DNA of 64,000 nucleotides from contig JACKID010000001.1 of the NCBI GenBank assembly GCA_020638675.1, positions 2,125,537 to 2,189,536 on the forward strand. The letters run 5' to 3'. The notes under the pieces are model-generated. The model was not told the origin of the DNA, did no database searches, and was given only the letters and a program-made list of their open reading frames with translations. Each line of letters starts with the position of its first letter. Position 1 is the stretch's first letter. The position numbers and the translations under genes were made by a program. This document shows, one piece after another, positions 1 through 45,232 of the stretch. Source of the DNA: Planctomycetota bacterium. GTDB taxonomy: Bacteria; Planctomycetota; UBA8742; UBA2392.

Positions 1-416
1 CTGCCTTCTGCATCAAGGACCCAGCAGTGGGGGATGCCACGCGTTTCGTACAGGCTGCCGATGTCGGCCTTCACGACGCCGTAGGTTGCGCTCTTGCCCT
101 CAATCAACTTGCTCTGGATCAGGTTGGCGTCTTCCTTGCTGACCGCAATAATCTCAAAGCCCTTCTCGCGGTACTTGTCATTCAGTTCCTGCAGGTGGGG
201 AACCCCCGCCATGCAAGGACCTCACCAAGTCGCCCAGCTTTCGATCAGAACGACACGGCCGCGGAACTGGTCGAGTTCCGTCTCGCCACCTGGGAAATTC
301 CAGCTCTTGTCGAACTTGAAGTTGGGGCCCATATCCCCAACGCCAAGCGCGCTCAGGCTGCCGGCAAAGACCATTGCCGTGACTGCAGCCAGCGCAAACA
401 TGGAAATGCGTTTCAT
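1..416 (-). CDS. TlpA/thioredoxin-like redoxin, probable selenoprotein (UGA = Sec at 222-224); 3' end beyond the window edge
   Basis: From ATG 416: signal peptide MKRISMFALAAVTAMVFAGSLSA, then RGRVVLIESWATW-TGA-GPCMAGVPHLQELNDKYREKGFEIIAVS...YETRGIPHCWVLDAEG. The frame stays open and TlpA-like after the TGA, which occupies the first Cys of WCxxC. Confidence 0.85.
187..219 (-). promoter_or_regulatory. Candidate bacterial SECIS element
   Basis: The mRNA just 3' of the UGA can fold as UCCU-U-GCA-U-GG-C-GGGG-(GUU)-CCCC-A-CC-UGC-AGGA, with bulged U residues and a G/U apical loop. Folded by eye. Confidence 0.6.
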
Positions 417-497
417 CTGCTCTCTCCCGTCGTGTGAGGACGACTTGGTTGGTGATCGTACGGACTTTAACACGGGCGAAGCGCCCAGAGCCTCCTA

Positions 498-1736
498 TTA
501 ATTAGTTGTTGATTGGGGACGCATTTTCTTACGCCACAAGTTCTGTGCGATCACCACAAATCCTGCCAAAACAGCACTTAGGAACAGAAGGCCAGAATCG
601 TCAGTAGTGCTGCAACCGCCCTCACCTTCGGCTTCCTTGGATTTGGGCTTCGGTGGGGACTTCGAAAGGTTGATGACGTCCCCGCTGATCAAGTTGGGGC
701 TCGTCACAAAGAAGTCCGCGGCGGCGCCCAATGCCCCAAGCACATCGGTCCGAACGATCGAGACTTCGACGGTGGCATTGGTGCCGGAACCGAAGTCGAT
801 CCCGACCCAGAACGTGCGCGCGCTGCCGCTTGGAATGTCGGTCAGTGTCTGGATCGGCGAGCCATCGAAGGTCACGCTGATCACGCTGCCTGCGATAACC
901 CACTTGCCAACATCCGTCGGGATGTGCGACAGAATCAGAACCTCGCCGCTGCCCGGCTCAAACGCAGAGTCACCGTCGTCCTGCCACAGGGTCAAGCGGG
1001 TCACAGCGGCCGTCTGGGCCGAATTGGCGCAGGTAACGGAGATCGTAATCGAGGCGAGGTCGATACCCTGAAGCTGGCCGGGCCCGGTCGGCGTGAGGCT
1101 GCTGACCGCGAACTGCAGTGCCGGCGCGTTCGTCTTGCCGTAGTAGGCGTTGCGCGGCGCGCTCGGATTGCCGGTGCCGGGGGCCAGCTGGTTCTCGCTG
1201 TGCCGAATCGAGATGTCGTTCGACGTCGCGACAGCGCTGCTGGTGATTGTATCTGTGCCGGGGTTTGTCAGCACGATGTCTGCCTGGGGATCGATGCTGA
1301 AGTTGTAGCTCTCGCCGTACACTACCGGGTTTGTGCCGATATCGACGCGTAACTGAAGCGTTCGGATGACTCCGCCGGGCGCTGTGAACGTTTCCGTGAA
1401 CGTGATGTCGTCCGTGGTGCCGTTGGGAACGATGGTGCTGGTCTCATCCAACTCCTCTAACGCGTCGAACGTTCCGTTGCCGTCAGCATCAAAGAAAGCC
1501 CGGACCCTGGTAAAGGCCTCATCGGCCAGGCCGAAATTGCTGATGTGGACCGTGATGGAGTCGATGTCCACGGACCCGCCGGTCGGTTGCAGCACGAATC
1601 TGGCCACCTCGACGTCTGTGTCGTTGAGTTGGTTGCCGAAGTCCGGGCCGGTGGTGCCGGACAGATTGAAGGCAAGGTTCGCGGCCGAAGCGGGTACAGC
1701 CAGCAGCAGCAGAATCGCGGCGATAACGGCCCGCAT
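498..1736 (-). CDS. Secreted protein with two Ig-like beta-sandwich modules and a MYXO-CTERM-like C-terminal anchor
   Basis: Signal peptide MRAVIAAILLLLAVPASA; two related modules with Ca-binding-like loops (FDADGNGTFD, WQDDGDSAFE); tail EGEGGCSTTDDS + hydrophobic helix + RKK. Confidence 0.75.
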   Translation of the reverse strand: MRAVIAAILLLLAVPASAANLAFNLSGTTGPDFGNQLNDTDVEVARFVLQPTGGSVDIDSITVHISNFGLADEAFTRVRAFFDADGNGTFDALEELDETSTIVPNGTTDDITFTETFTAPGGVIRTLQLRVDIGTNPVVYGESYNFSIDPQADIVLTNPGTDTITSSAVATSNDISIRHSENQLAPGTGNPSAPRNAYYGKTNAPALQFAVSSLTPTGPGQLQGIDLASITISVTCANSAQTAAVTRLTLWQDDGDSAFEPGSGEVLILSHIPTDVGKWVIAGSVISVTFDGSPIQTLTDIPSGSARTFWVGIDFGSGTNATVEVSIVRTDVLGALGAAADFFVTSPNLISGDVINLSKSPPKPKSKEAEGEGGCSTTDDSGLLFLSAVLAGFVVIAQNLWRKKMRPQSTTN

Positions 1737-2574: not shown

Positions 2575-3032
2575 TTCCAGAGGACTTTCTGTCCGCGGCG
2601 CAAATCCATGCTGATGTTGCCGCTCCAGATGCGCTGGTCAACGTCGTAGACGGCGTGGCAGAACTGGCAGAGCGCAGCCAGGTTCTCATCTGCGCAGTTC
2701 GTGGGGTCGTGGTCCAGATGCGCCGTCTGCAGCACGACGATGCTCTCCCGGATCTCCGGCGGGCGTCCGCCCGTCATGATCACGTGCTTCCACCACTGCT
2801 CTTTCGGCCAAGGCTCTGGCCCCGGCAGCTTCTTGCCGTGGCGGTTGTACCACTGGCCGTGCATGGCCCAGCAATTGTTGGCCCCCACCAGAACGGCTTC
2901 ACCGTGCGGCTTGGCGCACCACTCGCAAACACCGGCCGCACGCTCGAAACGTATGCGGCGGCTGATTCGCGCCCAGTTCTTCGGGTACTTCTTCTTCTGC
3001 GCGTTACGCCGGCGCTCGACCGGATCGTCCAT
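2571..3032 (-). CDS. Phage-type HNH endonuclease family protein
   Basis: YPKNWARISRRIRFERAAGVCEWC ... VVLQTAHLDHDPTNCADENLAALCQFCHAVYD: CxxC plus CxxCH zinc knuckle and H-N-H core. Confidence 0.8.
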   Translation of the reverse strand: MDDPVERRRNAQKKKYPKNWARISRRIRFERAAGVCEWCAKPHGEAVLVGANNCWAMHGQWYNRHGKKLPGPEPWPKEQWWKHVIMTGGRPPEIRESIVVLQTAHLDHDPTNCADENLAALCQFCHAVYDVDQRIWSGNISMDLRRGQKVLWK

Positions 3033-3162
3033 AGCCCCCCACTGTCTGCAACTCCCGATGTCCAGTGTACATCACCGTGCGACACGAACTTCGGTGGGTG
3101 TGTTTGACTTCACCCCTGCGCGTGGCTACGGTCGACGCAGCAAGCCGAGCAGAGGACGGAGC

Positions 3163-4041
3163 ATGTTTGAAGGCGCAATTACCGCATTGATCACGCCGTT
3201 TCAGGACGACCTGAGCGTAGACTTCGAGGCGCTGGACAGGCTGATTGAGCGCCAGATCGAGCAAGGCATTGAGGGCATCGTCCCATGCGGCAGCACCGGC
3301 GAAGCCATCACCCTGACACTGGACGAGCGCTGCGCGGTCATTGAGCGCACAGTGAAGACGGTCAACAAACGCGTTCCCGTCATTGCCGGCACCGGTGGCA
3401 GCGCGACGGCCGAAGTCGTCGAGGCCACGAAACGCGCACTCAAACTCGGCGCGGACGGCGCGCTGATCAACACTCCCGCCTACAACAAGCCGCAACAGGA
3501 AGGCCTGTATCTGCACTATGCAGCCGTCGCAAAGGCCGCGCCGGAGCTCCCGGTGATGCTCTACAACATCCCGGGACGCACGGCCGTGCTGATGGAAACC
3601 TCAACGATGGAGCGTCTGTGCAGCGAGTTCCCGAAGGTGTTTGTCGCGTACAAGGACGCAACCGGCAACCTGAAACAGACGGAAGAAGTGCTGCGCCGGA
3701 CGAAACTGACTGTGCTGTCAGGCGATGACGGGCTGACGCTGCCGATGATCAGCCTTGGCGCGAAGGGCATCGTGAGCGTCGCGGGCAATGTGATTCCGAA
3801 CCAGGTTCGGCAGCTCTCTGACTTGGCGCGTGCAGGCAAGCTTGCGGAGGCCGCTGCGCAGAACCACAAGAACACGCCTGTGGTCGACGCCTGCTTCGTC
3901 GAGAGCAACCCTGTTCCGGCAAAGTGGGGGGCGCACCTGCAGGGCTTGTGCAAGCCGCACGCCCGCCTGCCGCTGGCCCCGCTTACAGAGAAGAACCGCG
4001 AAGTTGTGCGCAAGGCGCTCGCCGACATCGGCGTTCTCTAG
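3163..4041 (+). CDS. dapA: 4-hydroxy-tetrahydrodipicolinate synthase
   Basis: MFEGAITALITPF, GSTGEA, MLYNIPGRT, YKDATG (Schiff-base Lys); start placed at ATG 3163 after GGAG. Confidence 0.95.
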   Translation: MFEGAITALITPFQDDLSVDFEALDRLIERQIEQGIEGIVPCGSTGEAITLTLDERCAVIERTVKTVNKRVPVIAGTGGSATAEVVEATKRALKLGADGALINTPAYNKPQQEGLYLHYAAVAKAAPELPVMLYNIPGRTAVLMETSTMERLCSEFPKVFVAYKDATGNLKQTEEVLRRTKLTVLSGDDGLTLPMISLGAKGIVSVAGNVIPNQVRQLSDLARAGKLAEAAAQNHKNTPVVDACFVESNPVPAKWGAHLQGLCKPHARLPLAPLTEKNREVVRKALADIGVL

Positions 4042-4114: not shown

Positions 4115-7100
4115 TCAGGCTTTGCGGCGTCGGCTTACAATAACGGCCCCCACCGCCGCAAGCGACAGCAGGTACCACCAAGTCTGCGAGCCGCCCGTGC
4201 TGCAACCCCCACCGCCGCTGTCTCCCCCACCACTGCTGGACTTCGGCGCAACGCCCGTTTCGTTCACCCAGATCGTGACGATGTCCGTGGTGCTGAGCCC
4301 GGCGGCGTCGGTTACGGTCAGCTCGAATTGCAGTGTGTCGTCCACCCCCGGTGCAGTAAACGTCGGCTGAACGGCCGTTGGGCTCGACAACGCAACGGTG
4401 TTCGCCCCGGTGATCTGGAGCCACTGGTAGCTGAGTGTGTCGCCCGTGTTCGGGTCGGAACTTGCGGACGCATCAAGCTGAACGGATGCACCCCAGACAA
4501 CGGCAAAGTTTGGACCGGCGTTGGCCGAAGGCGGCAAGTTGAGTTCCACGGTCACGAGGACAGTATCGGTATCAAAGTCGCCCCGATCATCGGTGACCGT
4601 CACCTCAAACGTTACGACTTCGTTCTGCGTCACGGCAGGCGCCGTGAATGTCGGCTGCGACGCGGTCGCGCTGCTGAGGCTGAGCGTGATGGCGCCCGCG
4701 GTCTGAACCCACGCGTAGGTCAGCGGGTCGGCTTCAGGATCAGTCGATCCCGAGGCATCGAGCTGCCCTGTGGCCCCCGGCAGCAGCCCGAAGTCGCCGC
4801 CCGCATCGGCAACAGGCGCGAGATTGTTCGTGATCGTCACCTGAACCGTGTCGGTGTCTGAGTCGCCCCGATTGTCGGTCGCGGTCAGTTGGAACACGAC
4901 CACTTCATCCTGCGCGACACTGGGCGCCGTGAAAGTTGGTTGTGCCGCCGAAGAGTTGCTGAGTGCGAGTGAGATCGCGCCGCTGATCTGCGTCCACGCG
5001 TAGGTGACAGGATCGCTTTCAGGGTCCGTCGTGCCAGTGGCATCTAGCTGGCCGCCATTGTTTTCCCTGACTCCGAAATCTGTACCGGCGTCGGCAACCG
5101 GCGGCAAGTTGTTCGATACTGTCACGTTCACTGTGTCCGTGTCTGTCAATCCGGATGGATCAGTTACCGTAAGCTGGAAGGTGACGACCTGGTCCTGCGA
5201 TACCGCCGGCGCAGTAAACGTCGGCTGGGCGACTGTTGCACTGCTGAGGTTCAGCGCGATGGCGCCGCCGGTCTGCTGCCAGATGTAGCTGACCGGATCG
5301 CCGTCGCTGTCGCTGCTGCCGGTGGCGTCCAGCTGGCCTCCGGATGATTCCCGAACGGTCGCGTTGCTGCCGGCGTCTGCCGTCGGTGCAGCATTCGTGC
5401 GCAGGTCGAATTCGATCGCGAGATAGGCAAGGTTGCCCGTGTTGCCGCTGACGGTGTCGGTGATCTTGACGGTCCAAGTTCCCTGCACGTACTCGTACAG
5501 GAAGGCCGCTACATCATCGTCATCCTGCTTGGTGTCCGGGAAGACGGCGATGATGTCGGTTTCGGCATTCAGCACACCATTGTTCGTGGTCTTGAGATTG
5601 ACGGTAGTCGCGCTCGGGCTGGTCAACGTAATCGCCAGGTCGCCACGGCGTTCATGGTAGATGCGGGTATGTACCCGGACGCCCATCACGATGCGCGCGT
5701 CATTCACGCTAAAGGTGCGCGAGATGCCGGTCGTGCTGTTGTCCGGAATGCTGACCGGTGTACCGCTGTTGACCGAGTCCTCCTTGAAGACCTTCTGCAA
5801 CCCGATGTTGTGGCTGCTTGCGATCACGAAACCGGTAGCGTCGTTCGGCACACCAGTCTGCGGGTTTGCGGGGATGCTGTAGCCGGTAACGCGCAAGGTC
5901 CAGGTTCCCGCCGCCGGGCTGTCGACATGAACCAGCTCGATGTTGTCGCGGCGATTTGGTCCCGCGGTCGTGAACGTGTAGGCGTCGTCGCCGGATGCTA
6001 CGGTCGTCACGCCTGAGTACGGGTAATGGATGCCGCCGGACGGGTCCTCCAGTTCTATGTCGAGATCATTGACCAGCGAGATCGACGCACCCGCGCTGGC
6101 CCACACGTCAAGCCAGTCGAGAACGATGTGGATCGGATCGCTGGTGCCGACGTTGAACGTGTACTCCTTCACGTCACCGCTGCGGACAGTACCCCGGAAG
6201 ATGCGATCTCCGCCGCCGGCTTTGTCGGCAAGGATCAGGTCCGCGGCCGCCTGGCAATCGACGATGCCGAAGCCGAATCGATAGTCCGGCCCGGTGTTGT
6301 ATTGATCGCGGCAGGTCTGGGCCAGCACGGCGCGGGCGACGTCAGGAGTGAACATCTGGTCGTTGTGTTCGTGCCGCCAAAGCTGGCTGAGCAGCACCAC
6401 GGAGCCGCACACACTCGGGCCTGACATGCTGGTTCCTGACAGTGACTGGTAGGCGTCGTCCGCGCTGACGACGGAGCTGGTAAGGCCTACTCCGTTGGCG
6501 CAGAACTGCGGCACGAGACGCCCGTCCAGCGCCGGCCCTCTGCTCGAGAAGCCTGCGAGTGCCTCGCTGTCGTCGGCCGCCGCAATGATGAACCCGTTCC
6601 GGTGCGCGTTGTAGGTAGGAACCGAGCAGGTCGGGTTGCCGGTCCCAAACGGCTTCGCATAGGTCCCGCCCGGCTTGCTGGTGGCGTAGTTTCCCGCCGA
6701 TTGCACCTGGCACAGCAGCAAATCGCGGTTCGTGATGTCCGTTTCCTGGGTGCCCGCGTTGTACTGGCCCCAGTCGTCGGCGCCGCCGGTGAAGTCCGCG
6801 TAGCTGTGGTTGTCGGCGACGTGATTGAAGCTGTGGCGTGCGTCGCGCCGCTCGGAGTCGATGTTGTTCCACAGATGAACCAGCGCGCACGCCTTTGGCG
6901 CGTACCCCTCTGCCGTGGCGTTGCCCGTGCCGTCGCCGACAATCGTGCCTGTCACGTGGCCCGCGTGGTAGAACATCGATGCCGTAGTGTTGACGTTGTA
7001 GACGCGGCTGGTACTCGGCCAGCCGGCCGGTGCCGTAACACCCGCGAGGCCCCCATACTGTTCATGCGTCATGCGTGCGACGCCGCCGTCCCAGACTCCG

Positions 7101-7912
7101 GCCACCTGACCATCTCCGTCGAGGTTGTAGGGACTGACACCTATGATCGCCGGCGTTGCGTTTGACATTGCCGCGCTTGTCTGATTCGTGCTGACCTTGA
7201 ATCCGCTCAGCGTCACTTGCTCTACGAGGTTGCTCGCGAAGACCGCGCGTGCGCCTGCGTCGTCGACTCGCAGCGTCACGAACGGTGAGGCGCCGGCCAG
7301 GCTGCCGTCCAGAATCACGGCCTCCGCATCGTCGAGCAGCCCCGACGCCTGCTGAAGCGTCACGTCACGCCAGAAGAGCACGCGGTACTCACCGGACAGG
7401 TTGCCCTTGTCGAGTCGCGCGTAGATGTCGGCGGTAAGCTTGTCCTCCGGACGCTGCAGAAGCGTGCCTACCACGGCCGGTTCTCCCGCCAGAATGGCCG
7501 CCATGCTCTCGAGTGATGAAGCGCCGCCAGCTCTGAGGATGTGCGTATGTGGATTGCAGTAGCCGACAAAGGACGCGCCAGCTGCTGCGAGACTGTCCGC
7601 GAACGCGCGTGTGAGGTCGCGATCGAGCCTTACATAGAAAGGCTCCCCGGCATCGGTCGGCATCGGACGCGACGGTTCGGCCAGCGCGAATCGCGAATCC
7701 AGACGAATGAGTCTCGCGCGCTGCTCGGGTGCGAGGGCAAGCTCAAATGCAGCCTGCGCGCTGTAGTCAAATGGCGCTCCGGAATCGAGTCTGGTCGATG
7801 CAGGGTCATCGCCCGGGCCCTGCTGGCCTTGCAGATCGTGGGGCCTGATTGCCAGAAACACTGCCGCAAGCGCCACAACGGCCGCGAGGGCGTAGGCGGA
7901 TTTGGTCCGCAT
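4115..7912 (-). CDS. S8 subtilisin-like serine protease with P-domain, four PKD/K319L-like repeats and a MYXO-CTERM-like tail (paralogue 1)
   Basis: Triad motifs VWDGG, HAGHVTGTI, SGTSMSGP and oxyanion SAGN; P-domain (SIPDNSTTGISRTF...HERRGDL); four PxADAG/PxANAG repeats; GGGGCSTGG-TM-RRRKA. Start ATG 7912 after GGAGG. Confidence 0.92.
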   Translation of the reverse strand: MRTKSAYALAAVVALAAVFLAIRPHDLQGQQGPGDDPASTRLDSGAPFDYSAQAAFELALAPEQRARLIRLDSRFALAEPSRPMPTDAGEPFYVRLDRDLTRAFADSLAAAGASFVGYCNPHTHILRAGGASSLESMAAILAGEPAVVGTLLQRPEDKLTADIYARLDKGNLSGEYRVLFWRDVTLQQASGLLDDAEAVILDGSLAGASPFVTLRVDDAGARAVFASNLVEQVTLSGFKVSTNQTSAAMSNATPAIIGVSPYNLDGDGQVAGVWDGGVARMTHEQYGGLAGVTAPAGWPSTSRVYNVNTTASMFYHAGHVTGTIVGDGTGNATAEGYAPKACALVHLWNNIDSERRDARHSFNHVADNHSYADFTGGADDWGQYNAGTQETDITNRDLLLCQVQSAGNYATSKPGGTYAKPFGTGNPTCSVPTYNAHRNGFIIAAADDSEALAGFSSRGPALDGRLVPQFCANGVGLTSSVVSADDAYQSLSGTSMSGPSVCGSVVLLSQLWRHEHNDQMFTPDVARAVLAQTCRDQYNTGPDYRFGFGIVDCQAAADLILADKAGGGDRIFRGTVRSGDVKEYTFNVGTSDPIHIVLDWLDVWASAGASISLVNDLDIELEDPSGGIHYPYSGVTTVASGDDAYTFTTAGPNRRDNIELVHVDSPAAGTWTLRVTGYSIPANPQTGVPNDATGFVIASSHNIGLQKVFKEDSVNSGTPVSIPDNSTTGISRTFSVNDARIVMGVRVHTRIYHERRGDLAITLTSPSATTVNLKTTNNGVLNAETDIIAVFPDTKQDDDDVAAFLYEYVQGTWTVKITDTVSGNTGNLAYLAIEFDLRTNAAPTADAGSNATVRESSGGQLDATGSSDSDGDPVSYIWQQTGGAIALNLSSATVAQPTFTAPAVSQDQVVTFQLTVTDPSGLTDTDTVNVTVSNNLPPVADAGTDFGVRENNGGQLDATGTTDPESDPVTYAWTQISGAISLALSNSSAAQPTFTAPSVAQDEVVVFQLTATDNRGDSDTDTVQVTITNNLAPVADAGGDFGLLPGATGQLDASGSTDPEADPLTYAWVQTAGAITLSLSSATASQPTFTAPAVTQNEVVTFEVTVTDDRGDFDTDTVLVTVELNLPPSANAGPNFAVVWGASVQLDASASSDPNTGDTLSYQWLQITGANTVALSSPTAVQPTFTAPGVDDTLQFELTVTDAAGLSTTDIVTIWVNETGVAPKSSSGGGDSGGGGCSTGGSQTWWYLLSLAAVGAVIVSRRRKA

Positions 7913-8091
7913 GCTGCCTCCAGGGAATGTCTGAATAGCTGCTCGACTCGGGATCGATTTCCGCACCGATTCACTGCTGGAGGCATTGGAGACTTTTGAT
8001 GTGCAGAAATTCTAACTTCGGAAGTCTAAGTCCCCCAAGCCATTATCGTCATGAATTTGGCACCGAGCGGTCTGAAACGCCGCAAATGAAA

Positions 8092-8134: not shown

Positions 8135-11100
8135 TCACGCCCGCTCGCGGCGGCGTGCAACCAACACAATCGACATCAGGGCAATCAGCGTAGCAAGCAA
8201 CCAGGACGAATCGGCGCCCGTGCTGCAGCCACCCTTGTCCTTGCCGCCCCCGCCACCGGAGCTTGATCCCCCACTACCACCTCCCCCCACCGGCGCGCTG
8301 CCCGTGGCGTTGACGGTAATCGTCACGGTATCGCTGTTGCTGTTGCCGTTGCCGTCATCAACGACCAGCTGGAACACCAGCACGTCGTCGACACTGGGCG
8401 CGGTAAACGTCGGCTGCGATGTGTTTGCACCAGACATCGTTGCCGAGTTGCTGCCGCCGATCTGCGTCCAGGTGTAGGTGAGCGTGTCGTTCTCCGGATC
8501 GCTGCTTTGCGTGCCGTCCAGTTGCGTAACCGCAGCCCAGGCCGCGTATGCGTCGGGGCCGGCGGAAGCCGTTGGCGGGTTGTTCGCAGCAGAATCCAGC
8601 ACCGTCACAACGACAGTGTCGGTGTCACTGCCGCCGTTGCCGTCATCCACCGTGAGCTGGAAGGTGATCTGCAACGATGAGCTGACTTGCGGTGCCGTGA
8701 ACGTCGCATTTGCCGACGTGGCGTTGCCGATCGTGACCCAGCTTGAGCCTACTTCAACCCAGGCGTAGCTAAGGGGGTCGCCGTCCGGATCTGTACTTCC
8801 CGTACCGTTCAGGTTGCCTGTGTTTCCCTCGGTAACGCTGAAGTTCACGCCGGCGTTGGCCGTCGGCGGGTTGTTCGGCGCAGGAACATCGTTCACGGTG
8901 ATGTTGACGCTGTCGGTATCCTGGTGTCCGTGGCCGTCGTCGACCGTCAACTGGACGACCACTACCTGGGTGCTCGACACCTGCGGCGCCGCGAACGTTG
9001 GCGTGGCCGTGTTCGAGTTCTGGATCGTGATTGTCGGGCCGCTGATGCGGACCCACTGGTAGGTAAGCGTGTCGCCGTCCGGGTCGGTGCTGCCGCCGCC
9101 GTTGAGGTTGACAGTCACGCCTTCGTTAACGGTCTGATTGCTGCCGGCGTTGGCCGTCGGCGGCTGGTTGATCGGCGGGTTGACTGTGTCGTAGTCGATC
9201 TCAATCGCGAGCCATTCCAGTGTGCCCGTGTTACCGCTTGAGGTGTCTGTGACCTGCACGGTCCAGGTACCGTTCGCTGCGAGCCCGATGAATGCGGCCG
9301 TATCGTCGTCGTATTGGCGCGTGTCTGGATACACACCGATAATGTCGTCACGGGTACTCGTGTCGCTGCCCTCGATTTGTGCCGTCGTGCCGCTGTGCGA
9401 CAGATAGATGTCGATGTTGCCGCGCTGCGTGTGGCGGATGTCCACGTATACACGCACGTTCTTCACGGCATTCGTGTTGCTCACCGTAAATGTACGTGTG
9501 ATGCCTGTGGTGCTGTTGTCAGGGATGCTGACCGGCGTGCCGCCGTTGAGCGAGTCCTCAAACATCTCGCGGGCGGTGCTCATTACGTTCTCGCTGACGA
9601 TCACAAAACCGGTCGCGTCGTTGAGGACGGTGTTCTGCGGGTTGGCGGGAATGCTGGCGCCCTTCACGCGGACCTTCCAGGTGCCGGTCGTTGGGTTGTC
9701 TACCTCGGCGAGTTCAATGTTATCGCGCTGGTTGCTGCCGTTGCGTGTCCACTGGTAGGTCTGGTTTCCAGCACCGCCCGAGCTGAGCCCGGACCAAGGG
9801 TAATGAATAGTCGTGCCGTTCGGCTCGACCAGTTCCAGGTCGATGTTGTTGATCAGCTTGTTGCCGGCGCCGGTGCTGGCATAGATGTCCAGCCACGAGC
9901 AGACAACCTTCAGCGGCGTGGAACTGCTGGTCACGGAAAGGTTGTACTCAACCACGTCGCCCTGGCGAATCGTGCCGCGAATGATGTGGTTTCCACCACC
10001 TGCACTGTTGGCGAGGATCAGGTCGGCCGCACGCTGGCAGTCGACAACCCCGAAACCGTAGCGGTAGTCCGGCCCCTGGTTGTATTGGTCCATTGCGGTG
10101 GCGGCGAGAATGCCGCGCACTACATCTGGTGCGAACTGGCGGTCGTTCATCTCGCGATACCAGAGCTGCGACAGAAGGGTGATCGAGCCGCACACGCTCG
10201 GACTCGACATGCTGGTGCCGGACCAGCCCGACGGGCCAAGATAGGCCGTGTCGCTTGCTGGACCGGTACTGAGCAGGTTTACGCCGTTGGCCGCAAAGTG
10301 CGGGATCATGCGCCCGTCGTCCGTCGGCCCGCGCGAGCTGAAGCTTGCGATTCCCCCACCGTCGTCAGTGGCGGCGATGACGAGCGCGTTCTTGATGCAA
10401 CTGTCGTCGGTGCAGCTGTTGTCGCCGGCGCCGTCATTGCCGGCCGACTTGCACATGTTCAGCCAGATGTCGCGAATGTCGATGTCCGACGACTGGGCCG
10501 AACCGTCATAGCCGCCGTACCCCCCGCCGCCGCTACCATAGGAATGATTGTCGGCGGAGTGCCGATAGTTGTGGCGGGCGAGGCGGCGCTCGGCATCCAT
10601 CGAGTTCCAATCATAGCTGAGAACGCAAGCCTGCGGCGCGTACCCGCGCGCGCCCGCGTTGCCCGTGCCGTCTCCGGCGATCGTGCCGGTCACGTGGGTC
10701 GAGTGGTCCGCCAGACTCGTACCGTCCACCTTGAGAATGCGCTTGGTTCCGTTGTTGATCGGACTGGGCGAGGGTGCATTCTGGAAATCCACGTGTGTGT
10801 CTCGGGCACGGCCTGCATCCCAAACGGCTGACACAACACCGGTGCCGTCTAGATTGTAGCTGGTGCTCGGGCCGATCTGGCTGGGGAGCGCATTCGAGAG
10901 TGCGACGCTGTCCACGTTGTGCGCAGTCAGCGTCTGGCGTACTTCCACCCACTCGACCAGCGGGCTGTTCACGAAAGCAACGAGCGCCTGGCGGGTCAGG
11001 AAAGCATCAACGAATGGGGTCTCGAAGTCCAGGTGCCCCTGACTGTCGAGCGTGGCGTAGTCCACGGGCGCCTGGTTCTCGGCAAGCAGACCCTCGGCCG

Positions 11101-11686
11101 CCGCGGACGTTACGTCCCTGAAAAACAGAATGCGATAAACCTTGCCTTCCACCGCGGGGTCGTTGTAGTCCGCCCAGGCCTCGGCGCTGCAAGCGTCCAT
11201 TGGCTCACGTAGCAGCGTGCCCTCAACACTTGGGGCGTCGCGCAGAAGTGCGCCAATCCGTTGCAGTGCGGCGGCATCGAGCGCGCGAATGAAGTGGGCG
11301 TGCGGATAGGCGTAGCCGACAAATGATGCACCGGCCGCAGACAATTGGTTCGCGAAGCCCCGACCCAGCGGGCCGCTGAACTTGACGTAAAACGGTTTTG
11401 TCGGCTCGGACGTCGGCAGCGGGCAATCGGAATCTGCAATTGCGTATCTGGGCTTCAGGCTAATGAGTTTGGCCCGCTCGTCGGAAGAAAGCTGTTGTTC
11501 GAATCGGTACTGGGCGTCCAGGTCGTACGGCGCTCCCAGCTCCAGGCTTGAGGTAAATCGCTGACGTTCCCCACGTTCGTTTACCTCTTTGGCGTCCTGG
11601 CTGTGTACCGCGGTTGAAAGTGTCGCCCAGACACACCCCACCATGGTCAACAGGGCCAGCATCGCCAATGCGGGTTTGGGCCGCAT
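8135..11686 (-). CDS. S8 subtilisin-like serine protease with P-domain, three PKD/K319L-like repeats and a MYXO-CTERM-like tail (paralogue 2)
   Basis: VWDAG, DHSTHVTGTI, SAGND, SGTSMSSP; P-domain; three NxPPTAxAG repeats; KGGCSTGADSS-TM-RRRERA. Start ATG 11686 after GGGAGG. Confidence 0.92.
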   Translation of the reverse strand: MRPKPALAMLALLTMVGCVWATLSTAVHSQDAKEVNERGERQRFTSSLELGAPYDLDAQYRFEQQLSSDERAKLISLKPRYAIADSDCPLPTSEPTKPFYVKFSGPLGRGFANQLSAAGASFVGYAYPHAHFIRALDAAALQRIGALLRDAPSVEGTLLREPMDACSAEAWADYNDPAVEGKVYRILFFRDVTSAAAEGLLAENQAPVDYATLDSQGHLDFETPFVDAFLTRQALVAFVNSPLVEWVEVRQTLTAHNVDSVALSNALPSQIGPSTSYNLDGTGVVSAVWDAGRARDTHVDFQNAPSPSPINNGTKRILKVDGTSLADHSTHVTGTIAGDGTGNAGARGYAPQACVLSYDWNSMDAERRLARHNYRHSADNHSYGSGGGGYGGYDGSAQSSDIDIRDIWLNMCKSAGNDGAGDNSCTDDSCIKNALVIAATDDGGGIASFSSRGPTDDGRMIPHFAANGVNLLSTGPASDTAYLGPSGWSGTSMSSPSVCGSITLLSQLWYREMNDRQFAPDVVRGILAATAMDQYNQGPDYRYGFGVVDCQRAADLILANSAGGGNHIIRGTIRQGDVVEYNLSVTSSSTPLKVVCSWLDIYASTGAGNKLINNIDLELVEPNGTTIHYPWSGLSSGGAGNQTYQWTRNGSNQRDNIELAEVDNPTTGTWKVRVKGASIPANPQNTVLNDATGFVIVSENVMSTAREMFEDSLNGGTPVSIPDNSTTGITRTFTVSNTNAVKNVRVYVDIRHTQRGNIDIYLSHSGTTAQIEGSDTSTRDDIIGVYPDTRQYDDDTAAFIGLAANGTWTVQVTDTSSGNTGTLEWLAIEIDYDTVNPPINQPPTANAGSNQTVNEGVTVNLNGGGSTDPDGDTLTYQWVRISGPTITIQNSNTATPTFAAPQVSSTQVVVVQLTVDDGHGHQDTDSVNITVNDVPAPNNPPTANAGVNFSVTEGNTGNLNGTGSTDPDGDPLSYAWVEVGSSWVTIGNATSANATFTAPQVSSSLQITFQLTVDDGNGGSDTDTVVVTVLDSAANNPPTASAGPDAYAAWAAVTQLDGTQSSDPENDTLTYTWTQIGGSNSATMSGANTSQPTFTAPSVDDVLVFQLVVDDGNGNSNSDTVTITVNATGSAPVGGGGSGGSSSGGGGGKDKGGCSTGADSSWLLATLIALMSIVLVARRRERA

Positions 11687-11897
11687 TGATGCCTCCCTTC
11701 TCGTCCGAAATATCAAAGAACACACACCTAGGTGAGTCGCCCAGATCTCGCCTTGATTACACGAACGGGTGAGTATTTTTCAGGTTCAAACTGTTTCTAA
11801 GTATGTGCGAGCGTTGCGACTTGCGGCACGCCCGCCCGCAAAGCCCCAATTGGTCAACACCTGTACGCAATTGGGCCGTCGGGGTACCTTGGAAGGC

Positions 11898-13382
11898 ATG
11901 ATCCTGAACACAGAGCTGGCAAGCACGCAACAAGAGATCCTGAAGCACGCAAAGGACTTCGGGCTGGATTTCTTCGACGTGCATTTCGAGATGCTGGACC
12001 ACGAGGCGCTCAACGAAGTGGCGGCCTACGGGGGCTTCCCCACCCGCTACCCCCACTGGCGCTTCGGGATGCAGTACGAGGAGCTCATCAAGAGCTACAC
12101 CTACGGCATCAGCAAGATCTACGAGCTGGTCATCAACAACGACCCGGTCATTGCCTACCTGATGGACAGCAATGACTTCGTCTCCCAGAAGCTGGTAATG
12201 GCCCACGTCTATGGCCACGCCGACTTCTTCAAGAACAACGCCTTCTTCAGCAAGACCAACCGCAAGATGGTCGACCAGATGGCCAACCACGCGGCCCGCG
12301 TGCGCCGCTACATGGACCATTACGGGCGCGACAAGGTTGAGACCTTCATCGACGCCTGCCTGAGCCTTGAGAACCTGATCGACCCGATGCTGCCGTTCAC
12401 CAAGCCCCTGCAAAGGCAGGAAGCGGCCGAGCTTGACGACGAGACCGTGCGCATCGAGGTCACCAAGCTTCAGTCCAAGGACTACATGGACCGCTACATC
12501 AACCCGCCGGAGATCATGGCGGAGAAGCGTGCCGAGCTTGAGAAGAAGGCGCTGGAGCCGCCGAAGTTCCCGCTTGAGCCAGTGAAAGACGTGCTGTGGT
12601 TCCTGATGAATTACGCGCCGTTGCGCAACTGGCAGCGTGACGTGATCGGCATCATCCGCGAAGAGGCCTACTACTTCGCCCCGCAGCGCCAGACGAAGAT
12701 CATGAACGAAGGCTGGGCCAGCTACTGGCACAGCACCATCATGACCACCAAAGCGGCCACGGCGGCCGAAATCGTGGACTTCGCCGACCACCACAGCATG
12801 ACGATGGGCATGCAGCCGGGCGTGATCAACCCGTACAAGCTTGGCATTGAGCTGTTCCGCGATATCGAGTACCGCTGGGACCACGGCATGCACGGGCTGG
12901 AGTGGGAGCGCTGTGACAACAACGCCGAAAAGGAAAACTGGGACACCAACGAGATCGGCGAAGGCCGCAAGAAGATCTTCCAGGTCCGCCGCATTTACAA
13001 CGACCTGACCTTCATCGACGAGTTCATGACGCCGGACTTTTGCAGGCGCGCCAAACTGTTCACTTACGACTACAACCCGGCCAGTGGCCAGTACGAGATC
13101 AGCAGCCGCGCGTTTGAAGAGATCAAGACCAAGCTGAAGACCGCGCTCACAAACGGCGGAGAGCCCTACATTTACGTCGAAGACGGCAATTACGGCAACC
13201 GTGGCGAGCTGCTGATGGCCCACCGCCACGACGGTTTCGACCTGGACGAGAACTATTCGCGCGAGACGCTGAAGAACGTCCGCAAGATCTGGAACCGCCC
13301 GGTCTGGCTCACCACGCAGGAAGAGGGCAAGGAAGTGCTGCTGGGCTACGACGGCAAGGAGTTCAGCCGCGAGGAGTCCTAG
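11898..13382 (+). CDS. spoVR: SpoVR/YcgB family protein
   Basis: AYGGFPTRYPHWRFGM, YELVINNDP, MAHVYGHADFFKNN, TKIMNEGWASYWH, NPYKLG; start placed at ATG 11898. Confidence 0.92.
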   Translation: MILNTELASTQQEILKHAKDFGLDFFDVHFEMLDHEALNEVAAYGGFPTRYPHWRFGMQYEELIKSYTYGISKIYELVINNDPVIAYLMDSNDFVSQKLVMAHVYGHADFFKNNAFFSKTNRKMVDQMANHAARVRRYMDHYGRDKVETFIDACLSLENLIDPMLPFTKPLQRQEAAELDDETVRIEVTKLQSKDYMDRYINPPEIMAEKRAELEKKALEPPKFPLEPVKDVLWFLMNYAPLRNWQRDVIGIIREEAYYFAPQRQTKIMNEGWASYWHSTIMTTKAATAAEIVDFADHHSMTMGMQPGVINPYKLGIELFRDIEYRWDHGMHGLEWERCDNNAEKENWDTNEIGEGRKKIFQVRRIYNDLTFIDEFMTPDFCRRAKLFTYDYNPASGQYEISSRAFEEIKTKLKTALTNGGEPYIYVEDGNYGNRGELLMAHRHDGFDLDENYSRETLKNVRKIWNRPVWLTTQEEGKEVLLGYDGKEFSREES

Positions 13383-13499
13383 GCGCGTGGTCCAATCCGG
13401 GCTGAAATCGTGACAAACTGGTGTGTTGGCGGGGCTTGCACCGTGGACCCCGCCGACTATAGTTGAAGCACCCCCGCCACTCGAACAGACGTTGCCAAC

Positions 13500-14372
13500 A
13501 TGCGTATTAGCGTCCTGTTTTTCGTGCTGGCCGGCGCGTTGGCGCTGGTGGCCGGTTGCAGCAGCGGCCCCGAAGTTCGCGGCGACGGCCCCACGGCCGT
13601 GGGCACCGTGTCCACGCCCACCAAGAGCCGCTGGAGCACCTACCTGCAGGTCATGAGCGACAAGGAACGCACCACGTTCCTGGACATCGCCGACAGCTTC
13701 GAGCGCGAGCAGTGGATCCGCCGCAACGGCATTGACGTGCGTGCGGACCTCGATCGCCGCCTGTCTCGCGGCATCAGTGTCGACGCCGCCAAGCGCCGTA
13801 TCGAAGAGGCACCGGACGAAGTCACCAAGCGCGGCGACAGCACGATGATTTTCTACAGCCGCTACAACACCGAGAGCCGCACCAACTTCTGGCTGCTGTT
13901 CCGTGCCGACCAGCTTGTCAGCTGGAACGCGCACACGATTGCCGAACAGGACCGCGAACGCCACCTGCTGGAGTTCGAAAGCGCGTTGATGGACAAGTTC
14001 GACACCGTGCTCAAGCGCGGCATCGGCATGGCCGAGATCAACCGCAACGCGGACAACGCCCGCGACGACCTGAATCGCGTCGAGCTTCACCACCGCGAGA
14101 AGATCGGCGACCCGGACTTCAAGGGCGCGCGCCAGGTCAGCAGCGACAACTACCTCGCGGCCGAAGACCTGCTCTACGCACGTTCGCGCAACGAGTTGTT
14201 CGAGTGGTTCCAGGGGCGCGAACCGGACCACATCATCATCCACCGCCCGTTCGAGACGCACCAGTACTTCATGACCTACACAGATCTCGACGGTACGCTG
14301 ACGGTCGTCACGGCGGAATTCATCTTCGAGAACGGGTTGCTGCAGGACTGGTTCGTCTATCACGAACGCTAG
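13500..14372 (+). CDS. Hypothetical lipoprotein
   Basis: Lipobox LVAGC after a hydrophobic leader; 290 aa with GC-rich codon bias. Confidence 0.75.
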   Translation: MRISVLFFVLAGALALVAGCSSGPEVRGDGPTAVGTVSTPTKSRWSTYLQVMSDKERTTFLDIADSFEREQWIRRNGIDVRADLDRRLSRGISVDAAKRRIEEAPDEVTKRGDSTMIFYSRYNTESRTNFWLLFRADQLVSWNAHTIAEQDRERHLLEFESALMDKFDTVLKRGIGMAEINRNADNARDDLNRVELHHREKIGDPDFKGARQVSSDNYLAAEDLLYARSRNELFEWFQGREPDHIIIHRPFETHQYFMTYTDLDGTLTVVTAEFIFENGLLQDWFVYHER

Positions 14373-14397
14373 CACCCGGCTTCGATGGCTGCTTTCG

Positions 14398-14424
14398 AGC
14401 CCCCGCGCACTTGCGGGGGCTTTT
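14398..14424 (+). terminator. Rho-independent terminator
   Basis: AGCCCCCGC-GCACTT-GCGGGGGCT followed by TTT, 25 nt after the lipoprotein stop. Confidence 0.75.
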
Positions 14425-14528
14425 GACTTGGCGGAAGGCTCGCCCTGTGCCAATCGTTCACAACATGCCGGGTGTTCAGCTTTGGCCAGAGCAAGCTATA
14501 CAGAATTCGACTCGTGAGACGCTGCTAG

Positions 14529-33983: not shown

Positions 33984-33987
<4 letters not shown>
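33415..33987 (+). CDS. TetR-family transcriptional regulator
   Basis: ARELFAERGY..TVRDIAAKAGIDPAMVIRYFGSKDGIF helix-turn-helix; divergent from the monooxygenase. Confidence 0.92.
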
Positions 33988-35807
<1,820 letters not shown>

Positions 35808-35814
35808 CTCGGCC

Positions 35815-36291
35815 TTATTGCGCGGGCTTGAGTAACACCACGGCCTGGGTGGCGATGGCCTCTTCTCGGCCGACGGCATCCAGCCCCTCGTTGGTGCGGG
35901 CCTTGACGTTAACCCTGCGGGTCTCGATCTCAAGAAGCGACGCGATGCGCGCTTCCATCTGGCTCTTGTAGGGTTTCAGCTTCGGCACCTGGGCGATGAT
36001 GTTGCAATCAATGTTCTCGACTTCCCAGCCGCGGCGCCGTACGTGCTTCCAGGCTTCCTTCAGCAGATCGCCGCTGTCGGCATCCTTCCATTTCGGATCC
36101 GTGTCCGGGAAATACTCGCCGATGTCGCCCAGACCGGCCGCGCCAAGCAGAGCGTCTGTAATGGCATGCAACAGGACGTCGCCGTCGCTGTGTGCCTTGC
36201 AGCCGCGATCGAACTCGATTTCCAGCCCGCCGAGGATCAGCGGACGGCCCGCGACCAGCTGATGGATGTCGTAGCCGATGCCTACGCGCAT
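35815..36291 (-). CDS. ispF: 2-C-methyl-D-erythritol 2,4-cyclodiphosphate synthase
   Basis: MRVGIGYDIH, HSDGDVLLHAITDALLGA, GDIG..FPDTD, VKARTNEGL. Confidence 0.96.
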   Translation of the reverse strand: MRVGIGYDIHQLVAGRPLILGGLEIEFDRGCKAHSDGDVLLHAITDALLGAAGLGDIGEYFPDTDPKWKDADSGDLLKEAWKHVRRRGWEVENIDCNIIAQVPKLKPYKSQMEARIASLLEIETRRVNVKARTNEGLDAVGREEAIATQAVVLLKPAQ

Positions 36292-36392: not shown

Positions 36393-37109
36393 ATGGCGGA
36401 AATGACCTCGTTCGGCGATGGCACCAGCGACTACGAGAAGTACATCCACACGCAGGAGCTCTACAAGCTTCAGAAGACTCCCGACCAATGGGTGAACGAA
36501 GAGGAGTTGCTGTTTCAGGTTGTCCACCAGGCCATGGAGCTGTGGCTGAAGGTCTGCATCCAGCACCTGGAGCAGAGCATTGCGTGGATGGGCGAGGGCA
36601 AACTGCACGAGGCCACACGCTTCCTGCGGCGTACCGCCAAGGTTCTGACGTTCCTCGCGGACAGCCTCGAATTCCCGCGCAGCATCTCGCCCTGGGACTA
36701 CCACAAGATTCGCATGGGACTGGGCAAGGGCTCGGGGCAGGAGAGTCCCACCTACAAGCGCATACACAAGGTCGTTCCCCGCGTGCTGACGGCGTTCAAT
36801 GAACTGATCGCGTCCCGCAAGGTCACGCTTGATCAACTTCATGCCGAGCGCGAACAGCATCAGGAGCTCTATGACCTGATGTGGGCGATGGCGGAATTCG
36901 ACCAGGAACTGATGCACTGGAAGTACCGACATTTCCACGTGGTCAAGCGCATTATCGGCGACGCGGTCATGAGCTTGAAAGGCATCCCGGCCAGCAGCCT
37001 GCAGAGTACCGCCCACGAGGCGCAATTCCCGGACATATGGGCCGTCATCAATCGCACTACGAACAGCTACAACGCCAAGTTCCGCCCGGAGGGCGCGTCA
37101 GGCTACTAG
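36393..37109 (+). CDS. kynA: Tryptophan 2,3-dioxygenase family protein
   Basis: YEKYIHTQELYKLQ, ELLFQVVHQAMELWLK, GSGQESP, WKYRHFHVVKRIIG. Confidence 0.82.
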   Translation: MAEMTSFGDGTSDYEKYIHTQELYKLQKTPDQWVNEEELLFQVVHQAMELWLKVCIQHLEQSIAWMGEGKLHEATRFLRRTAKVLTFLADSLEFPRSISPWDYHKIRMGLGKGSGQESPTYKRIHKVVPRVLTAFNELIASRKVTLDQLHAEREQHQELYDLMWAMAEFDQELMHWKYRHFHVVKRIIGDAVMSLKGIPASSLQSTAHEAQFPDIWAVINRTTNSYNAKFRPEGASGY

Positions 37110-37177
37110 ATTGATCGTTGGTGGATTCGGCATTCAGAAGTGTAAGATCAAGCCCACACTTCACCCGGGAGACTGCC

Positions 37178-37402
37178 ATGCCCAAGAAGACGGGATTGAT
37201 CGTGCTGCTGTTGGGGGTGGCGATCATCATCGCCGCGCTGGTAGACCTGTTTGGCATGAGCGCCGGGTTCAACATGGATTTTGGGAAGTTCGGCAGCTTC
37301 AGCGAGTGGCCGACGGAGCGTCTGGTGCTGCTCGGCGTCGGGGTGTTGCTTGGCGTGTGGGGCGCATACAGCCTGAGCCGCCAGTCCAAGAAGAAGAAAT
37401 AG
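37178..37402 (+). CDS. Small two-TM membrane protein
   Basis: 74 aa from ATG 37178 after GGAG; two hydrophobic segments; basic tail KKKK. Confidence 0.55.
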   Translation: MPKKTGLIVLLLGVAIIIAALVDLFGMSAGFNMDFGKFGSFSEWPTERLVLLGVGVLLGVWGAYSLSRQSKKKK

Positions 37403-37464
37403 CGCGCGGACTCTCCTGTGGCACCGGTCCGCGCCAATCGCTAGAAACGCGGCAGGAGGGCTAA

Positions 37465-38628
37465 ATGCCGGACGACCCACTGCTCAAATGGCGCGAGGAG
37501 TTTCCAATCCTCGCGAAGAAGACCTACCTCATCAACAACAGCCTTGGCGCTATGCCTCGCGGCGTTCGCGACGGGCTGAAGCACTTCGCCGACATGTGGG
37601 ACAATGACGGCGTGGTTGCCTGGCACTATCCGGACGGCTCGGGCTGGCTGGATGATTGCGAGAAAATGGCCGATCTGATCGGCAGTGTGATCAACGCCAA
37701 ACCTGGCAGCATGATGCTGCACCTCAACGTGGCTTCGCTGACGGCCCAAGTGCTTTCAAGCATTGACTTCAGCGGCCCCCGCAATCGCATCGTCTACGAC
37801 GACATGCAGTTCACCAGCCCCCACTACGTGTGCCAGGCGTGGACGCGCTACGGCGCTGAGTTGGAAATCGTGAAATCCGATGACGGCATCAGCGTGGACG
37901 TGCAGAAGATTGTGGACGCCATCGATGAGCGCACAGCCGTTGTGCCCATCAGCCACGTCTACTTCCGAAGCGCCTACCTGCAGGATGTGAAACCAATCAT
38001 TGAAAAGGCACATAAGGTAGGCGCAAAGGTCCTGCTGGACGTCTACCAGAGCATCGGCACTGTGCCGATTGACGTGAAAGACCTCAACGTTGACTACCTG
38101 GTCGGCGGCAGCGTGAAGTGGGTCTGCGGCGGGCCGAACGTCTGCTACCTGTACATTCGGCCGGACCTGATGAAGGACTACAAACCCGCGCTGACCGGCT
38201 GGATCAGCCACGCGCGCCCCTTCAAGTTCGAGATGGACTTCACTCCGCACGAAAGCGCGTGGCGCGCGGCCACTGGAACACCGCCGGTCGTGGCGCTTTA
38301 CAGCGCGCGTCCGGGCTACGAGATCATCAAGCAGGTCGGAGTAGAGAACATCCGCGCCAAGAGCAAGCGGATGACGGCCCACCTGTTTGAGCGCGCCAAG
38401 GAGGCCGGGTTCAAGGTCAACTCCCCCACCGACCCGGAACGCCGCGGCGGGACCGTGTGCATCGACTTCGACGGGGCAGCAAAGGCCGAGAACAAACTGA
38501 TCGAGCGTGGCTTCATCATCGACTACCGCCCGGGTGGCGGGATTCGGGTCAGCCCGCACTTCTACAATACGGTTGAGGAAATCGACGCGATCATTGACGA
38601 GATGAAGAACCTGCGAGATGGCAAATAG
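37465..38628 (+). CDS. kynU: Kynureninase-like PLP-dependent class V aminotransferase-fold enzyme
   Basis: LINNSLGAMP, LLDVYQSIG, GGSVKWVCGGP (PLP Lys), TGTPP, RGGTV; adjacent to TDO. Confidence 0.75.
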   Translation: MPDDPLLKWREEFPILAKKTYLINNSLGAMPRGVRDGLKHFADMWDNDGVVAWHYPDGSGWLDDCEKMADLIGSVINAKPGSMMLHLNVASLTAQVLSSIDFSGPRNRIVYDDMQFTSPHYVCQAWTRYGAELEIVKSDDGISVDVQKIVDAIDERTAVVPISHVYFRSAYLQDVKPIIEKAHKVGAKVLLDVYQSIGTVPIDVKDLNVDYLVGGSVKWVCGGPNVCYLYIRPDLMKDYKPALTGWISHARPFKFEMDFTPHESAWRAATGTPPVVALYSARPGYEIIKQVGVENIRAKSKRMTAHLFERAKEAGFKVNSPTDPERRGGTVCIDFDGAAKAENKLIERGFIIDYRPGGGIRVSPHFYNTVEEIDAIIDEMKNLRDGK

Positions 38629-43635: not shown

Positions 43636-43678
43636 GGCGCTCCTGGCGGCATGCTAGTCAGTATATGTCAAGAACGCG

Positions 43679-45229: not shown

Positions 45230-45232
45230 GGC

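Follow-up and report, generated by a model that had tools for sequence, protein, structure and literature searches.

The window analysed here is a 64,000-nucleotide stretch of contig JACKID010000001.1 (positions 2,125,537 to 2,189,536) from a Planctomycetota bacterium, and the gene under study, a predicted selenoprotein gene for an exported TlpA-like redoxin, occupies its left edge. Codons 1-138 of 325 lie at 1..416 on the minus strand, a strand that the initial annotation of the locus had not given. The start codon is an ATG at 416..414, with a Shine-Dalgarno-like sequence, GGGAGAG, 5 nt upstream of it (422..428, minus strand). From this ATG the frame reads MKRISMFALAAVTAMVFAGSLSALGVGDMGPNFKFDKSWNFPGGETELDQFRGRVVLIESWATW, followed by a TGA at 224..222; after this codon the same frame reads GPCMAGVPHLQELNDKYREKGFEIIAVS..., with no further stop down to base 1, and the first residues after the TGA are G-P-C-M-A-G-V-P-H. 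The left edge of the window cuts the gene, 562 nt more of which lie beyond base 1. The whole gene of 325 codons was read on an identical 2.8-kb Logan contig (L002), for which the pipeline call consists of a 64-aa open reading frame (ORF) and a 257-aa ORF, the latter starting at the Met located after U-G-P-C (U, selenocysteine or Sec).

The TGA is found in the context W-A-T-W-TGA-G-P-C. We predict that this codon, codon 65 (222..224, minus strand), encodes Sec as the N-terminal nucleophile of the redox motif U65-G-P-C68 (213..224, minus strand), which is placed at the start of helix alpha-1 of a thioredoxin fold; in the structural model of the relative P0104, this helix runs from residue 66. 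A further element of the fold is the codon of Pro129, in the sequence G-I-P-H (30..32, minus strand), a near-invariant column in our 40-sequence alignment (A3) that, by analogy with the TlpA/ResA fold, is presumed to be the cis-proline opposite the active site. The initial annotation had stated that the ORF track ends at WATW, as the ORF list confirms, and that the TGA sits at the first Cys of a WCxxC motif within a frame that goes on as a TlpA-type redoxin, which agrees with both the translation and the Cys-containing relatives described below.

Positions 1-480 of the window were matched without differences by contigs from three DNA runs (X1, with a depth of 67, X3 and X4) belonging to two studies of activated sludge and wastewater. 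An identical contig with the same TGA was also found in a metatranscriptome run (X12); the gene is transcribed in activated sludge. This RNA run additionally carries two diverged variants, 88% and 90% identical, whose substitutions are mainly at third codon positions on either side of the TGA, and none of the listed differences falls at 222-224. A bare in-frame stop, with nothing more, is what would be expected of a pseudogene or of a sequencing or assembly error in place of TGC or TGT. The initial annotation had itself named reads with TGC or TGT as evidence against its claim, and the independent assemblies and RNA contigs all carry TGA. The same codon is present in contigs of four runs from three studies, RNA included, and is kept in 14 diverged genes that are under purifying selection on either side of it, by which this explanation is refuted; its probability is close to nil. 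Because TGA terminates 13 of the 48 gene-like ORFs of the window as an ordinary stop, the genetic code is standard, with no global recoding. When the window was scanned for in-frame TGA codons with gene-like GC content at third codon positions (GC3) on both sides, a redox-motif context was found solely at 224..222; the other candidates were discarded as antisense-frame noise.

A search with the read-through protein returned ordinary Planctomycetota TlpA-family proteins with WATWCGPC and 30-40% identity, together with P0001, a fragment beginning with the Met that follows the motif, whose contig DNA reads E-R-W-A-T-W-TGA-G-P-C-M. A scan of the genome collection with the full protein was swamped by generic WATWCGPC proteins, and the 80 ordinary Cys TlpA loci that it gave, the source species not being among them, were reused in the Cys control set considered below. 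Scanning metagenomes with the downstream part identified two full orthologues (L083 and L084), both with W-A-T-W-TGA-G-P-C, and the 257-aa downstream fragment as query gave 69 clusters with 41-91% identity over the whole fragment. About 55 of these 69 clusters are themselves fragments of 249-262 aa, labelled in their sources as 'hypothetical protein' or truncated TlpA from Planctomycetes metagenome-assembled genomes, and 51 of them begin with M/V-x-x-V-P-H, that is, with the residue after U-G-P-C. In the DNA of eight further fragments, a 61-65-aa ORF ends in a TGA located exactly 9 nt before the fragment start (8/8). TGA was thus read at the catalytic column in 12 of 12 orthologues with DNA and in two tandem paralogues with the motif U-E-P-C, and we infer that the 51 truncated database entries likewise have TGA at this position. 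Assemblies that carry an orthologue include GCA_016722065.1, GCA_048499555.1, GCA_019912315.1, GCA_028377865.1 and GCA_008363065.1.

Coding conservation extends across the TGA. In an ungapped comparison of the 70 residues that follow the TGA, identity of the orthologues to the window protein ranges from 33% to 80%, and four close, gap-free orthologues show 65-80% protein identity on both flanks of the TGA, with about half of the nucleotide differences at codon position 3. Other members of the family carry Cys at the same column. Five full-length relatives of 321-326 aa (P0102, P0104, P0106, P0109 and P0114) all read E-R-W-A-T-W-C-G-P-C, L096 has TGC at the catalytic column, and tandem second copies with Cys have TGC in L084 (1484) and TGT in L088 (11142); in total, Cys encoded by TGC or TGT is found in six relatives, either full-length or cut by an edge, and in two tandem paralogues. 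The alignment of homologues that had been proposed as a check of the initial annotation therefore shows TGA or Cys (TGC/TGT) at this column. Sec/Cys pairing is the standard criterion for selenoprotein genes (PMC1088965, PMC1794560). In the present family, the orthologues keep both the in-frame UGA and the coding sequence on either side of it, and Cys, and no other residue, occupies the aligned column in the homologues.

Two real genes at this locus, one ending at the UGA with a 64-aa peptide and the other starting again from the AUG 9 nt further on, with a product of 257 aa, would agree with the ATG or GTG present after U-G-P-C in 12 orthologues and with the fact that both ORFs are called by every pipeline. 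However, the downstream product would have no signal peptide, and both strand beta-1 and the redox-motif nucleophile would be missing from it; it is the upstream piece that holds the conserved fold strand V-V-L-I-E-x-W-A-T-W. The same Met is internal to the continuous 321-326-aa Cys-form proteins, and the G-P-C between TGA and ATG is conserved in frame. Moreover, one paralogue (L094b) has ATC (Ile), and no start codon, at the Met position. We consider the two-gene arrangement most improbable.

The 325-aa protein encoded by the continuous frame is composed of a signal peptide, a domain of the ResA/TlpA fold and a helical C-terminal domain of 170 aa. By inspection and hydropathy, residues 1-24 (345..416, minus strand) show the n/h/c pattern of a signal peptide, namely MKR, a hydrophobic core and S-L-S-A, with a predicted cut before L. 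The N-termini of 13 family members, examined in the same way, have a basic n-region, a hydrophobic core and an A-x-A-like end, and in the P0104 model the predicted local distance difference test (pLDDT) score is below 50 at residues 5-20. This pattern is consistent with export by the secretory (Sec) translocon; the prediction of an exported protein made in the initial annotation is supported by the conserved signal peptide ending in A-x-A and by the low N-terminal pLDDT.

With Cys in place of Sec for scoring, residues 26-139 were above the Pfam cut-offs for Redoxin (49.3 bits; cut-off, 26.6), AhpC-TSA (46.6; 26) and Thioredoxin_8 (32.8; 27), and the nearest solved structures by sequence were ResA, DsbE and TlpA. 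The fold was evaluated on the AlphaFold model of the Cys relative P0104 (61% identical; pLDDT, 90.6), which stands here for the window protein. In this model, the first 20 residues are unstructured or helical and are followed by a thioredoxin-fold domain with the motif at a helix start and by eight helices from residue 172 to 323. The best Foldseek matches of the model in the PDB were ResA, DsbE, CcmG, Etrx and TlpA-type proteins, with template modelling (TM) scores of about 0.8 over the target (0.76-0.85 for ResA, DsbE, Etrx and CcmG). For the C-terminal helical domain, Foldseek gave no informative match, the matches being dominated by the redoxin domain.

Among the NCBIfam models, ResA (NF002854) scored 76.7 against a cut-off of 170 and TlpA (NF047696) 51.7 against 230, both below the cut-off. 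The N-terminal domain is a weak match to the ResA-like WAxxUGC family NF041054 (39.2 bits; cut-off, 300), and the C-terminal helical domain alone gave 73.6 bits to the VPGUxxT type 1 family NF041382 (cut-off, 350), with residues 158-322 (L002:1972-2466, outside the window) aligned to positions 179-348 of the latter. As all these scores are below cut-off, no curated NCBIfam model covers the family. From this alignment, the C-terminal helical domain looks like an accessory domain common to two thioredoxin-like selenoprotein families. The domain is rich in Lys and Glu and is composed of eight helices.

A stem-loop resembling a bacterial selenocysteine insertion sequence (SECIS) is located at 187..219 (minus strand), immediately downstream of the TGA. 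In the minimum free energy (MFE) fold of 48 nt, RNA positions 6-38 (U of the UGA being position 1) are paired, which corresponds to window positions 219..187, the coordinates at which the initial annotation had placed a bulged-U hairpin with a G/U loop. The structure comprises a lower stem, a bulged U (U14, window 211), an upper stem GGGG/CCCC and the apical loop G22-U23-U24 (window G203-U202-U201), which starts 18 nt after the UGA. In bacteria, the stem-loop directly follows the UGA and its small apical loop, in which a G is present, lies 16-37 nt from this codon (PMC10778597, PMC1088965). The loop of the window gene conforms to this rule.

Comparison with relatives revealed which parts of this hairpin are Sec-specific. 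All 12 orthologues have G22-U23, whereas GU is found at positions 22-23 in none of the 91 Cys controls, 62 of which have AU. In the Boltzmann ensemble, G22/U23 falls within a hairpin loop of 3-8 nt with at least 3 closing pairs in more than 50% of samples for 8 of the 12 orthologues, which thereby conform to the bacterial rule, versus 14% of the Cys controls. The GU in the loop forces Val (GUN) where the Cys forms have Ile (AUN): the residue before P-H is Val in all 51 Sec-type fragments and Ile in all 6 Cys forms. P0112, which had looked like a Sec-type fragment with Ile and thus an exception to this rule, has TGC in its contig and is a Cys form truncated where the contig ends. The GUN (Val) of all Sec forms against the AUN (Ile) of all Cys forms is a clear instance of protein sequence dictated by an RNA element. 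Compensatory changes occur at pair 16-30 (G-C to A-U, twice) and at pair 20-27 (G-C to C-G, twice).

The mean MFE was -16.1 kcal/mol for the 14 Sec forms versus -10.0 kcal/mol for the 91 Cys-form TlpA genes in the same W-C-G-P-C context, and the mean z-scores were -0.98 and +0.16, respectively. The MFE difference gave a Mann-Whitney p = 1.4e-4, and p = 0.014 versus GC-matched controls, values that are optimistic since the Sec forms are mutually related.

This relatedness is one of several points that weigh against a Sec codon served by this hairpin. On its own, the window hairpin is modest, with a z-score of -1.69 for 66 nt, at which length 13 of 200 shuffled sequences fold as well, and of -2.14 for 48 nt; it rises above chance because of the comparison with relatives. 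Covariation is weak: the RNAalifold consensus has just 8 pairs and -3.7 kcal/mol, with compensatory changes in 3 of the 8 (16-30, 20-27 and 9-36), and its covariation score was equalled by 31 of 500 shuffles. Stem registers vary between members, with loops GUU, GUUC, GGU and AGGU, and by thermodynamic prediction the distant orthologues L088, L092, L094 and L095 have no stable G22/U23 loop; the differing registers led us to reject one consensus SECIS structure common to the 12 orthologues. No selA, selB or selD gene was detected by Pfam among approximately 40 ORFs of the 64-kb window, ARAGORN found no tRNA, and hence no tRNA-Sec, in the window or in 11 related loci, and neither sel genes nor tRNA-Sec were found in approximately 130 kb of orthologous flanks; these negatives hold for the sequences searched and have no bearing on the rest of the genome. 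Finally, a search of the whole window against Rfam at the gathering threshold gave no match, and at positions 1-480 with E-values up to 10 Rfam gave just a chance small RNA match. To our knowledge, Rfam has no general bacterial SECIS model, in which case this null result is uninformative.

The initial annotation had suggested folding the region and testing for covariation; the hairpin is present and its loop GU is Sec-specific, while formal covariation is weak. This weakness, the shifting registers, the four distant orthologues without a stable loop at 22-23 and the position of the best hairpin in the tandem paralogues, 12 nt further 3', would favour a selenoprotein in which the hairpin at 219..187 is a by-product of the G- and C-rich codons of A-G-V-P-H and the true SelB-binding element is another structure. 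Nevertheless, the hairpin-making residues G-V (GUN) are found solely in the Sec forms, the Cys forms having Q/N/M/G-I, the position of the GU is invariant and its distance from the UGA fits the bacterial SECIS rule. We regard a by-product hairpin as unlikely. The hairpin at 219..187 is very probably the SECIS, a reading that draws more on Sec-specific conservation than on covariation.

Readthrough of the UGA without Sec, by a near-cognate or suppressor tRNA inserting Trp, Cys or Gly or through a lineage-specific reassignment, with a hairpin that merely slows the ribosome, would be in line with the fact that neither the window nor the orthologous flanks yielded any Sec machinery. Reassignment is contradicted by the 13 of 48 gene-like ORFs that stop at TGA. 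The codon occupies precisely the column of the catalytic Cys, with Cys as its sole alternative, and a leaky stop kept in more than 50 lineages despite a single-base route to TGC or TGT would be sensible only if UGA provides something that Cys does not. In addition, the GU apical loop, at its canonical distance from the UGA, is a signal of the type recognized by SelB (PMC10778597, PMC1088965). Readthrough without Sec is, in our view, very improbable.

Considering the continuous frame across a conserved TGA, the alternation of Sec and Cys, the Sec-specific hairpin, the ResA/TlpA fold and the transcription of the gene, we consider it highly likely that the in-frame TGA is a Sec codon and that this is a genuine selenoprotein gene for an exported thiol-disulfide oxidoreductase of the TlpA/ResA/DsbE type. 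What the initial annotation observed is confirmed and its interpretation is supported, the checks on homologues and on reads having both turned out in its favour. In the mechanism that we propose, when the ribosome reaches UGA codon 65, the downstream hairpin would present G22/U23 (window 203/202) in its small apical loop and recruit SelB-GTP-Sec-tRNA(Sec), and selenocysteine would be inserted instead of termination. Translation would then run through the hairpin, whose own codons give G-P-C-M-A-G-V-P-H-L-Q-E. The protein would be exported through the Sec translocon by means of its cleavable signal peptide, after which U65-G-P-C68 would cycle between the selenolate/thiol and selenenylsulfide states and reduce disulfides or other oxidised sulfur species in client proteins of the cell envelope. 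Its re-reduction would presumably depend on a membrane electron shuttle of the CcdA/DsbD type, and the probable role of the helical C-terminal domain (170 residues) is to bind a partner or client.

Selenoproteins of the UxxC 'Prx-like', 'thiol:disulfide interchange' and 'thiol-disulfide isomerase-like' types are established (PMC1794560, PMC1088965), which agrees with the initial assignment to a known class of UxxC redoxins. Full sets of selA/B/C/D, and split Sec candidates of the thiol-disulfide isomerase-like type, have also been reported from Planctomycetes (PMC4807772, tables S8 and S9). Like the published UxxC redoxin sets, the window family has UxxC in place of CxxC in a redoxin of the TlpA/AhpC-TSA type with widespread Cys homologues, a stem-loop within the gene, right after the UGA, whose small apical loop contains a G, and a gene split by pipelines. 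Unlike them, judged by their descriptions, it has a 170-aa helical C-terminal domain; it also lies in a conserved locus composed of an anchored 410-aa protein, the Sec redoxin and DUF480, and it comes from uncultured Planctomycetes, whereas the published sets are from Deltaproteobacteria or marine plankton. The two candidates of planctomycete P1 from Porphyra (PMC4807772, table S9) share with the window gene the phylum label, the protein class, the annotation as two ORFs and Cys in the closest match; compared by description only, they have no SECIS detectable by bSECISearch, whereas the window gene has a clear hairpin.

With ResA, TlpA, DsbE (CcmG) and Etrx (PDB 1su9, 1jfu, 2b1k and 4hqz), the window protein has in common the fold (TM approximately 0.8), the W-C/U-G-P-C motif, the proline loop and an N-terminal export signal; it differs from them in the Sec that replaces the N-terminal Cys, in its extra C-terminal domain and in scores below the NCBIfam ResA and TlpA cut-offs. 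NF041382 and NF041054 are, similarly, curated families of thioredoxin-like selenoproteins, but the motif of the window protein is W-A-T-W-U-G-P-C and not VPGUxxT or WAxxUGC, and its scores are far below their cut-offs. Regarding the hairpin, the E. coli fdhF SECIS is likewise a hairpin in the coding region that directly follows the UGA, contains a bulged U and has G-U in its apical loop; the stem sequence and the bulge position differ, and the role of the window hairpin in SelB binding is predicted. The apical-loop G-U of fdhF is said to have been numbered G23/U24 by Liu et al. in 1998, against G22/U23 in the window gene.

The gene is a new, consistently mis-annotated member of the known UxxC TlpA-like selenoproteins, which are known also in Planctomycetes, and the concept is unchanged, as UxxC thioredoxin-fold selenoproteins have been known since 2004-2006. 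As the initial annotation had anticipated, pipelines split the gene, into ORFs of 62-65 aa and 254-258 aa in NCBI, JGI, ENA and Logan annotations. At a 90% identity level, the databases contain at least 50 clusters of this kind, every one of which is annotated either as a pair of ORFs or as 'hypothetical protein'. Recognition of the Sec codon corrects a systematic annotation error, by which more than 50 clusters from these four sources were truncated at that codon, and provides a little-studied Planctomycetes lineage of activated sludge with a predicted exported selenoprotein that has a clear SECIS. Whether these sequences amount to an undescribed, clade-wide family of two-domain periplasmic selenoproteins of uncultured Planctomycetes is a more tentative proposal, to which we give somewhat less than an even chance. 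Under this proposal, the order of genes at the locus would be fixed, the helical accessory domain would be common to this family and the VPGUxxT selenoproteins, and the tandem second copy would be a Cys form in some genomes and, in others, an independent U-E-P-C Sec form with a differently placed SECIS of its own. If it were true, the family would offer a natural system for the benefit of Sec over Cys in an oxidising cell envelope and for the constraint that a SECIS imposes on the sequence of helix alpha-1 (Val versus Ile).

In the orthologous loci with upstream sequence, the Sec redoxin gene is preceded by a gene for a secreted protein of 402-416 aa with a C-terminal anchor, and DUF480 follows in all those loci, either directly or after the tandem second copy, which in some genomes is present as a Cys form or as a U-E-P-C Sec form. 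In the window, the upstream gene (498..1736, minus strand) encodes a secreted protein of 412 aa that ends in a hydrophobic anchor and a basic tail and matches no known family, apart from a weak sub-threshold match to GEVED. Judging from its conserved position, this anchored protein may be a functional partner of the Sec redoxin. No genes for cytochrome-c maturation, copper chaperones or DsbD/CcdA were found adjacent to the Sec redoxin gene.

The U-E-P-C paralogues (L089:10869-11852 and L094:10856-11830) are arranged in tandem just 3' of the orthologue and have the motif W-K-I-H-U-E-P-C with an in-frame TGA. Their best hairpin, displaced by approximately 12 nt in the 3' direction, has a G-U-U loop (ACCUG-GUU-CAGGU versus CACCUC-GUU-GAGGUG), and the two hairpins differ by a compensatory G-C to C-G change (CCUG/CAGG versus CCUC/GAGG).

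Elsewhere in the window, two very large secreted S8 subtilases (1283 and 1196 aa) that contain a P-domain as well as several PKD/K319L-like repeats are encoded at 4115-7966 and 8135-11725 (minus strand). The surroundings of the L093 orthologue include one S8/P-domain/PKD protein of 1174 aa, a 1068-aa ORF after it that matches no family, and also a dihydrodipicolinate synthase gene. At 11757-14453, a minus-strand ORF of 898 aa with no Pfam match overlaps the plus-strand ORFs 11769-13382 and 13500-14372, whose GC3 is very high (0.86-0.88). A kynurenine-pathway pair, tryptophan 2,3-dioxygenase beside kynureninase, is located at 36393-38628 (plus strand), with CysS (33984-35933, minus strand) just upstream; the neighbourhood of CysS and the dioxygenase gene is also present in L089. 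Positions 39998-47221 (minus strand) hold a run of genes for a Ppx/GppA phosphatase, polyphosphate kinase and the B and A subunits of hydantoinase/oxoprolinase. Finally, the listed 446-aa dihydrodipicolinate synthase ORF at 2701-4041 (plus strand) includes approximately 155 extra N-terminal residues with no domain, and its true start is probably near residue 150, the orthologous synthases in L091 and L093 being 292 aa long.

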